A DNA stretch of 51,022 nt from Betaproteobacteria bacterium RIFCSPLOWO2_02_FULL_66_14 (GTDB lineage: Bacteria; Pseudomonadota; Gammaproteobacteria; Burkholderiales; SG8-39). The notes beneath the pieces were generated by a model. It was given only the letters and a program-made list of their open reading frames with translations. It was not told the origin of the DNA and searched no databases. Shown piece after piece: positions 594 through 39,348 of this stretch. Where the stretch lies: contig MERB01000002.1 of NCBI GenBank assembly GCA_001770475.1, forward strand, positions 37,008 to 88,029, given 5' to 3'. Positions within the stretch are counted from its first letter, which is position 1. Every line of letters begins with the position of its first letter. A program made the position numbers and the translations under genes.

Positions 594-876
594 TGGCTCC
601 CCGACCAGGGCTCGAACCTGGGACCTGCGGATTACAGGTACCCCAAGGTTTCCCCTGGGCCTGGACTTTCTCTTGGCCGACCCGCGCAATCGCGGGGACG
701 GTCCGGCGTGTAAAGTCTCTGCACTTGCCCGGTGGCTTGGCCACCTGCTAGCTCAGGATTGCCCTAGACCGCAAGGTCCTTAGGTTTCCCTGACTTAGCG
801 CCGTTTTCACCACCACGTTTCCATGGCGGGCTGCCTACTTGACAGTCCGTCGCTCTACCAACTGAGCTATCGGGGA
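594..876 (-). tRNA. tRNA-Asn(GUU) interrupted by a group I intron; exon 1 is 876..842, exon 2 is 634..594, CCA is encoded
   Basis: The joined exons give the 76-nt sequence TCCCCGATAGCTCAGTTGGTAGAGCGACGGACTGT+TAATCCGCAGGTCCCAGGTTCGAGCCCTGGTCGGGGAGCCA. This folds as a full cloverleaf with anticodon loop CUGUUAA and discriminator G. It is colinear with E. coli tRNA-Asn. There is one A27:C43 mismatch. Confidence 0.85.
635..841 (-). mobile_element. Group I intron, 207 nt, similar in size and motifs to the Azoarcus tRNA-Ile intron, inserted between anticodon nt 35 and 36
   Basis: Helices drawn by hand: P1 is exon CUGU paired to intron GCAG, with a U-G wobble at the 5' splice site. P2 is CCGCCAUG-GAAA-CGUGGUGG; P3 is CGGCG/CGCCG; P4 is GCUA/UAGC; P5 is UCAGG/CCUGA; P6 is GGUGG-CCAAG-CCACC; P7 is GACUUU/AAAGUC; P8 is CCCGCG-AUUG-CGCGGG; P9 is CCCAGGG-GAAA-CCUUGGG. 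The intron ends in G. Motifs GAAACCUAAG and AGAGACU also occur in the Azoarcus ribozyme. Confidence 0.8.
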
Positions 877-33019: not shown

Positions 33020-33106
33020 GCCCGGGTGGCGAAACTGGTAGACGCAGGGGACTTAAAATCCCCAGGCCGCAAGGCCGTGCCGGTTCGAGTCCGGCCCTGG
33101 GCACCA
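33020..33106 (+). tRNA. tRNA-Leu(UAA)
   Basis: GCCCGGGTGGCGAAACTGGTAGACGCAGGGGACTTAAAATCCCC..., with a long variable arm, 87 nt, ending GGGCACCA. Confidence 0.93.

Positions 33107-36723: not shown

Positions 36724-39348
<2,625 letters not shown>

Follow-up and report, generated by a model that had tools for sequence, protein, structure and literature searches.

A tRNA-Asn gene split by a group I intron and an adjoining predicted PD-(D/E)XK homing-endonuclease gene vary as one unit in a betaproteobacterium and related bacteria: a probable bacterial counterpart of phage collaborative homing

We analysed a 51,022-nt stretch of DNA (hereafter the window) from Betaproteobacteria bacterium RIFCSPLOWO2_02_FULL_66_14, spanning positions 37,008 to 88,029 of contig MERB01000002.1 (assembly GCA_001770475.1). 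Near the beginning of the window, on its minus strand, lies a tRNA-Asn(GUU) gene that is split by a 207-nt group I intron with no open reading frame (ORF). Directly upstream, on the same strand and overlapping the first exon, lies a free-standing gene for a predicted homing endonuclease of the PD-(D/E)XK type. The split tRNA gene had been recognised in an earlier inspection of the bare letters (the sequence-only reading), from which the endonuclease gene was absent. Here we describe both elements and propose that they are mobilised together.

Exon 1 of the tRNA gene (876 to 842, 35 nt; UCCCCGAUAGCUCAGUUGGUAGAGCGACGGACUGU) supplies tRNA positions 1-35 and ends with CUGU, and exon 2 (634 to 594, 41 nt; UAAUCCGCAGGUCCCAGGUUCGAGCCCUGGUCGGGGAGCCA) supplies positions 36-76, starting with UAAUCC and ending with GCCA, with an encoded CCA and G as the discriminator. 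The joined exons were recognised by ARAGORN as a 76-nt tRNA-Asn(GTT) with a normal cloverleaf, and a BLAST search of 5,426 E. coli genomes aligned 91% of the query with annotated E. coli tRNA-Asn at 83% identity. As the uninterrupted syntenic tRNA-Asn genes of two related metagenomic contigs (L212 and L213; loci are designated by our L numbers) are identical to the joined product at 76/76 positions, exon 1 corresponding to their 5′ part, both splice junctions are fixed to the base and the insertion is placed between nucleotides 35 and 36. The coordinates, the tRNA identity, the encoded CCA, the discriminator, the likeness to E. coli tRNA-Asn and the point of insertion given in the sequence-only reading all hold. 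Intron-less alleles, for which it had proposed a survey of relatives, were found in the form of intact tRNA-Asn genes at the syntenic locus of L212-L215.

The unspliced gene in the window was reported neither by ARAGORN at default settings nor by Rfam at the gathering threshold. With the intron search switched on, ARAGORN returned for the unspliced region a tRNA-Asp(gtc) with a 189-nt intron and a malformed arm, a call that is overruled by the junctions known from the intact alleles. No second tRNA-Asn was found by ARAGORN within the window, the source of which is a metagenome-assembled genome (MAG). Splicing may be essential, as the sequence-only reading suggested, if the genome has no other copy.

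The 207-nt insert (841 to 635, minus strand; window coordinate = 842 minus intron position) is a small group I intron of the type known from bacterial tRNA genes, and self-splicing is predicted from its sequence. A sensitive search of 601 nt with the Rfam model Intron_gpI (RF00028) aligned 852 to 642 with the full model (1-253) at 41.7 bits and E 2.8e-9, and the helices were assigned from this alignment and by inspection. P1 (845-841/835-831) pairs exon CUGU and intron C1 with G7-G11 (GGCAG) and contains the U-1.G8 wobble. P2 (829-822/817-810) has 8 bp and P9 (659-653/648-642) has 7 bp, and both are closed by GAAA loops. The other helices are P3 (803-799/708-704; CGGCG/CGCCG), P4 (793-788/758-753; UCAGGG/UCCUGA), P5 (784-782/764-762), P5a (779-775/770-766), P6 (752-750/725-723), P6a (745-740/736-731), P7 (717-712/669-664; GACUUU/AAAGUC), P8 (703-691/686-675) and P9.0 (662-660/638-636; AGG/CCU). 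The terminal omega-G (G207, at 635) precedes UAAUCC of exon 2.

Much of this fold had been drawn by hand before: the P1 U.G wobble, the GAAA loops of P2 and P9, P3, P7, P8 and the terminal G were all confirmed. Two helices had to be renamed. The former "P4" (GCUA/UAGC) is fully paired in just 2 of 14 homologs and consists of the bases of J3/4 and the start of P6, and the former "P5" (UCAGG/CCUGA) is the true P4 according to the Rfam alignment and covariation. The anticipated Intron_gpI match was obtained over the full length of the model, at a score that stays under the gathering score. Minimum free energy (MFE) folding of the intron alone (z = -3.1) yields P2, P4-P5a, P6a, P7, P8, P9.0 and P9. 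It also draws the GCUA/UAGC helix, because the P3/P7 pseudoknot is beyond MFE folding.

A covariance model for bacterial tRNA introns (R1), which we built from 14 seed introns, gave 125.6 bits for the window intron and 116-127 bits for its non-seed relatives L211 and L216. Covariation was then followed in three alignments. In a MAFFT alignment of the core of 14 introns from the same tRNA site (A2), 94.4% of the helix cells were paired, compared with 77% after shuffling and 31-51% when the partners were slid, and compensatory changes were seen at 15 of 28 pairs, including 5/5 in P3 and one in P7. Covariation of P3 and P7, the lack of which the sequence-only reading had named as a refutation, is thus present. 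The model-based alignment of 69 introns (A3) gave 89.9% paired cells (shuffled, 74%; slid, 32-49%) and 20/28 compensatory pairs. For the full-length alignment of the five introns of the window's own lineage, designated type A (A4: window, L211, L216, L094 and L183), the values were 96.4% (shuffled, 88%; slid, 30-51%) and 16/55, with the compensatory pairs located in P2, P3, P4, P5a, P6, P8, P9.0 and P9. The U-1.G8 wobble is invariant in all five type A introns. Between the window, L211 and L216 the differences in helices P2, P5a, P8 and P9 are compensatory, and we therefore conclude that the fold is under selection.

The novelty of an Asn(GUU) host and of the 35/36 site, as implied by the sequence-only reading, did not survive comparison with the literature and with other genomes. 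In Williams 2020 (10.1101/2020.01.27.920355), the four classical classes of bacterial tRNA introns are extended to 21, and Pam37.Asn.4Ug stands in the seed alignment alongside Lys.4Ug, Tyr.4Ug and Asp.4Ug. In our own scan of one genome per GTDB species, for a pattern composed of the P7 3′ strand, omega-G and a tRNA-Asn-like 3′ exon, at least 74 further tRNA-Asn(GUU) genes were split at exactly 35/36 (74 among the 120 matches listed). Among these listed matches the 74 introns measure 184-723 nt, all have U-1 and omega-G, and 29 different anticodon-stem sequences are represented; their hosts include Patescibacteria, Omnitrophota, Nitrospirota, Cyanobacteria, Planctomycetota, Proteobacteria, Elusimicrobia and others. 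The window intron belongs to the already described Asn.4Ug class, and its host and site are known and common. It has in common with Pam37 the tRNA-Asn(GUU) host, the 35/36 site, U at -1 and omega-G. Pam37.Asn.4Ug, however, has two hairpins that are missing from the window intron, an additional P2.1 and one between P7 and P3′, and the type A intron is a different lineage at the same site. A literature search on group I introns and tRNA-Asn turned up organelle papers only, most subscription journals lying outside the search.

Long introns at 35/36 (519-723 nt; L022, L026, L030, L043, L051, L056, L060, L062, L064, L066, L087, L096, L100 and L101) encode an HNH-like ORF of ~100-135 aa. The ORF carries the motif CxxCGY...FHH...CANCH and reaches 17.5-20.9 bits with Pfam HNH, just below the cut-off of 21.4. 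A second endonuclease family therefore serves the site in other phyla.

Several related observations were made in the same survey. Two MAGs labelled "Candidatus Pacearchaeota archaeon" (L019 and L023) have a tRNA-Asn split by bacterial-type group I introns, and L019 obtained the top model score overall (131.8 bits); archaeal-labelled contigs of this kind are suspected in Williams 2020 (10.1101/2020.01.27.920355) to be bacterial and mis-binned. Floridaenema evergladense BLCC-F167 is a cultured carrier of the tRNA-Asn intron class. Related introns interrupt genes for tRNA-Lys(UUU) and tRNA-Lys(CUU) at the corresponding position (L014, L115). Since L014 (7133-7430; R1 score 102 bits) comes from a cultured isolate, Sphingomonas cremea G124 (NZ_JAKFGM010000001), splicing is directly testable there. 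The tRNA-Leu(UAA) gene of the window, a classical intron host, is found at 33020-33106 (+) without an intron.

Likeness of the window intron to the Azoarcus tRNA-Ile intron, first noticed from the motifs GAAACCUAAG and AGAGACU, could be verified in the Williams seed alignment (row Aol6.Ile2.5Ug). The introns of Azoarcus tRNA-Ile(CAU) and cyanobacterial tRNA-Leu(UAA) are likewise small (~200-250 nt), ORF-less and located in the anticodon loop, and they have the core motifs GAAACCUAAG, AAUCCUGAGC, GYAGAGACU and AGUCC in common with the window intron. They differ in their position in the loop (36/37 in Azoarcus tRNA-Ile and 34/35 in cyanobacterial tRNA-Leu vs. 35/36 in the window tRNA-Asn) and in P7, which is GACUA/UAGUC there and GACUUU/AAAGUC in the window. 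In Williams 2020 (10.1101/2020.01.27.920355) the four classical tRNA classes are said to be listed as IC3 in the intron database; the likeness of the window intron to the IC3 introns of Azoarcus and cyanobacteria is one of motif resemblance only.

The endonuclease gene (1308 to 835, minus strand) encodes 157 aa if translation starts at the TTG at 1308; the gene call starts at the ATG at 1299 and gives 154 aa. Its product is GenBank OGA19552.1, annotated "hypothetical protein A3I63_06260". It matches Pfam PF11645 (PDDEXK_5) with E 4.3e-33 and 114.7 bits against a cut-off of 26.1 (domain at 1272-883), and PDB entry 2OST (I-Ssp6803I) was matched by sequence with E 6e-4; NCBIfam returned no family. 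For the AlphaFold model of the protein (pLDDT 82.7) the best PDB match in Foldseek was again 2OST (E 2e-9, TM 0.66-0.69), and some of the 111 homologs bear the NCBI name "group I intron-associated PD-(D/E)XK endonuclease". Three residues, D47, Q60 and K62, show no variation among 25 relatives and coincide with D, Q and K in the alignment to 2OST; from general knowledge of the PD-(D/E)XK fold we take them to be the putative catalytic residues. By sequence and by modelled fold the protein is a member of the I-Ssp6803I family, with nuclease activity predicted. The dN/dS values are 0.03-0.18 in all pairs (0.038/0.263 in the least saturated one), showing that the gene is under purifying selection.

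This gene lies outside the intron, its ORF being located upstream of exon 1. In relatives the stop codon of the endonuclease abuts tRNA +1 (...ATTTGA followed by TCCCCG). In the window ATTTGA has become ATCCGA, and because this stop is mutated the ORF continues through exon 1 to a TAG at 837-835 (intron nucleotides 5-7). The same read-through tail ("SPIAQLVERRTV") occurs in another lineage at least (P0002) and apparently in P0103 too. A canonical relative, such as the protein of L216 or L003, has 140 aa. The window endonuclease also departs from its relatives at P48 and V69, positions that are conserved in at least 90% of them.

Presence of the endonuclease gene and presence of the intron were strictly coupled in a comparison of syntenic uvrB-aminotransferase-tRNA-Asn loci, anchored on the neighbouring aminotransferase. 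Both elements occur in the window, L211, L216 and L003, and neither in L212, L213, L214 or L215. There are thus four filled alleles and four empty ones, the latter with an intact tRNA-Asn, and zero mixed alleles: the two elements constitute a presence/absence polymorphism as one unit. The usual end of the endonuclease ORF is 35 bp from the site of intron insertion. In the metagenomic loci with endonucleases of 63-97% identity, a split tRNA-Asn is found 3-58 nt downstream of the endonuclease in 14/14 cases, and the same holds for L144 and L183. No intron core was detected in the remaining loci of this 80-locus metagenomic sample of endonuclease relatives.

The introns that stand beside these endonucleases are of three types. 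Type A is found in the window, L211, L216, L094 and L183; type B, in which P7 and P3′ are separated by an additional hairpin, in L132-L142 and L144; and type C, which is Azoarcus-like and has a large P1 loop, in L003. The window endonuclease is 65-73% identical to those located by type B and C introns and 45-47% identical to type A neighbours (L183, L094). Relatedness of the endonucleases therefore does not track intron type, and close relatives accompany three intron lineages at the same site. The P1 loop of the type C intron (L003, 4459-4510) holds an insertion of ~40 nt with a hairpin of its own, located after the 5′ splice site and before the internal guide sequence. In L094 (Burkholderiaceae MAG DTUPRO3, JAJTYR010000007) there is only a partial endonuclease match (profile 50-135) upstream of an intact-looking type A intron, which may represent a decaying endonuclease gene next to a retained intron.

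Endonucleases that are less closely related (26-52% identity) adjoin tRNA genes in 70/80 metagenomic and 49/80 viral loci (L143-L210; L217-L296). The viral copies sit inside dense tRNA arrays, and their commonest downstream neighbour is tRNA-Asn(GUU). In one viral contig (L289, 1135-1880; IMGVR_UViG_2799112923_000002) a PDDEXK_5 ORF is contained in the group I intron of a phage tRNA-Lys(UUU) gene, the host tRNA being assigned by eye, and begins just past the 5′ splice site. The PDDEXK_5 family is therefore both intron-encoded and free-standing. Intron cores near the endonuclease gene were seen in phage loci L273, L276 and L278 too. The arrangement was not found in the literature on PF11645/PDDEXK_5 and on free-standing endonucleases at bacterial tRNA genes, within a search that left most subscription journals outside, and flanking endonuclease genes are not discussed in Williams 2020 (10.1101/2020.01.27.920355).

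Two known systems are close to the one described here. I-Ssp6803I (2OST) and the window endonuclease belong to the same PF11645 family and have the same fold, with D...QxK aligned at ~20% sequence identity, and both are tied to a group I intron in a tRNA anticodon loop. I-Ssp6803I is reportedly encoded inside the Synechocystis tRNA-fMet intron, whereas the window endonuclease is encoded outside the intron, upstream of exon 1, in a family whose stop normally abuts tRNA +1. The Synechocystis enzyme is a tetramer that binds a 23-bp pseudo-palindromic target (PMC3384342). The anticodon arm of the tRNA-Asn gene is a natural pseudo-palindrome with its centre at nucleotide 35 and would suit an enzyme of the I-Ssp6803I type. 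The second system is the collaborative or trans homing of phages, in which a free-standing endonuclease and an ORF-less intron act at one site (PMC3984707; PMC2790892). The phage examples (cyanophage psbA; T4 mobE/nrdB) and the window have in common a free-standing endonuclease located within co-conversion distance of an endonuclease-less intron and inherited together with it. In phages, however, protein-coding genes and other endonuclease families are involved, whereas the window offers a bacterial chromosome, a tRNA gene, a PD-(D/E)XK protein and a putative cleavage site.

We propose, with a probability of about 0.8, that a free-standing homing endonuclease and an ORF-less self-splicing intron of the Asn.4Ug class move as a pair, in the manner of phage collaborative homing. 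At the RNA level the fold suggests that the pre-tRNA would adopt P1-P9 with the P3/P7 pseudoknot and that exogenous guanosine would attack after U35, the partner in the P1 U.G wobble. Then the terminal G207 (omega-G) would dock in the G site, and exon ligation would release a normal 76-nt tRNA-Asn. By analogy, the anticodon stem probably contributes to keeping the exons together; for the Anabaena intron such a role has been reported, judging by a title cited in PMC3984707. At the DNA level we give slightly better than even odds to cleavage of the uninterrupted tRNA-Asn in the anticodon arm by the enzyme, with repair co-converting the endonuclease gene and the intron. An empty tRNA-Asn allele would be cut, and repair from a filled allele would copy both elements, which are 35 bp apart. 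Splicing would keep the tRNA of the carrier functional, and the carrier would be immune to further cutting because the intron splits the target. The more specific proposal has several parts: that an active free-standing endonuclease cuts at 35/36 with the intron as immunity, that this would be the first collaborative homing at a tRNA gene of a bacterial chromosome, and that the PDDEXK_5 clade would be an undescribed class of tRNA-leader endonucleases. We consider it evenly balanced.

Some of our results weigh against this interpretation. The Rfam score of 41.7 bits is below the curated gathering threshold of 50; the Rfam group I seed is without bacterial sequences, and cut-offs of 18-20 bits were used, according to Williams 2020 (10.1101/2020.01.27.920355). 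P10 is weak and not conserved. Given the lost stop and the changes at P48 and V69, the window enzyme may be impaired. In addition, endonuclease relatives at 40-52% identity end 0-23 nt before intact tRNA genes (Asn, Thr, Lys, Ala and others). Occurrence of distant relatives by intact tRNAs means that an adjacent intron is not needed by the family and that the target may lie outside the anticodon loop. As the family is found in tRNA leaders with or without an intron, the target could lie elsewhere, and the modest odds given above to a shared site, like the possible but doubtful standing of the alternative that follows, take account of this. In that alternative the endonuclease would be a selfish resident of the tRNA leader that homes in trans without a shared site, its target (e.g. 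the tRNA 5′ boundary) being split by its own insertion, and the intron would be a passenger co-converted at a distance of 35 bp. T4 MobE/nrdB is a comparable case, in which MobE nicks away from the intron insertion site and still mobilises the intron (PMC2790892). The leader relatives at 40-52% identity fit such behaviour, as the tRNA-Asn, Thr, Lys and Ala genes that they abut are uninterrupted and no intron core is found near them; so do the phage relatives within tRNA arrays. Yet a passenger role leaves unexplained why three intron lineages are located at exactly 35/36 beside one endonuclease clade and why an intron is present beside every close-clade endonuclease, and the sole characterised member of the family targets a tRNA anticodon region (PMC3984707).

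Two further explanations were considered. The insertion could be a decayed relic that no longer splices, this tRNA-Asn copy being dead and another copy serving translation. The Rfam score under gathering, the upstream ORF running into the gene and the origin of the window from a MAG, where other tRNA-Asn genes are possible, could be read in this way. However, the exons are 76/76 identical to intact alleles, the helix differences among close relatives are almost only compensatory, and the same locus carries tRNA-Asn in four endonuclease-less relatives, making a relic very improbable. Alternatively, the endonuclease-like protein could have been domesticated as a maturase or as a host or defence nuclease and kept for that role rather than for mobility. 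A homing gene that is purely selfish would not usually experience purifying selection over long periods (dN/dS 0.03-0.18 here), and the fold resembles the nuclease domain of SPARDA defence systems. Against this, the PADLOC match was solely to a "homing endonuclease" model (E 4e-4), no defence-system partner genes were seen nearby in the window, and a gene that is present in some close relatives and absent from others, as here, bears the mark of a mobile element; we know of no PD-(D/E)XK maturase. Domestication is in our opinion unlikely. Both a defence-nuclease reading and a pseudogene reading were set aside as unlikely.

The surroundings of the gene contain a possible signal for its transcription. 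By consensus match only, a promoter-like TTGCCC-18-TATAAT was recognised inside the endonuclease ORF (1012 to 983, minus strand), 136-106 nt upstream of tRNA +1, the consensus scan giving one such site vs. 0.1 expected. It is present in 10 of the 14 close-clade loci (at least 63% identity) and depends on the Ile codon ATA, which is expected to be rare in a GC-rich genome. In the empty alleles L212 and L213, TTGCCG-17-TAGAAT stands directly upstream of the tRNA. In the window the endonuclease start follows the aminotransferase stop after only 15 nt. These features are suggestive of 1012-983 as a candidate promoter of the tRNA in filled alleles. On the opposite strand, directly downstream of the split tRNA-Asn, a 78-aa ORF (286-522, +) matches the C-terminal part of type IV pilin only.

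The host, the site and the kind of intron are already known, and the intron itself is ordinary; the arrangement of an endonuclease gene in a tRNA leader, linked with the intron, may be the new part. As standard tools miss the split gene, such genomes seem to lack tRNA-Asn at the locus, and the same annotation gap probably affects many other species with Asn.4Ug introns. For one tRNA gene there is now a natural series that includes empty alleles, alleles with both endonuclease and intron, three interchangeable intron lineages and an intron-encoded relative in a phage. The way in which separate RNA and endonuclease components come together as mobile group I introns has been studied so far mainly in a few phage systems. 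The series would make this question testable, provided that the target of the endonuclease is the intron insertion site. If the proposal is true, empty sites would be available in nature, three intron lineages would have been exchanged while the endonuclease clade stayed the same, and the PDDEXK_5 clade of bacterial tRNA leaders and phage tRNA arrays would span the free-standing and intron-encoded states that are predicted by the "endonuclease invades intron" model.

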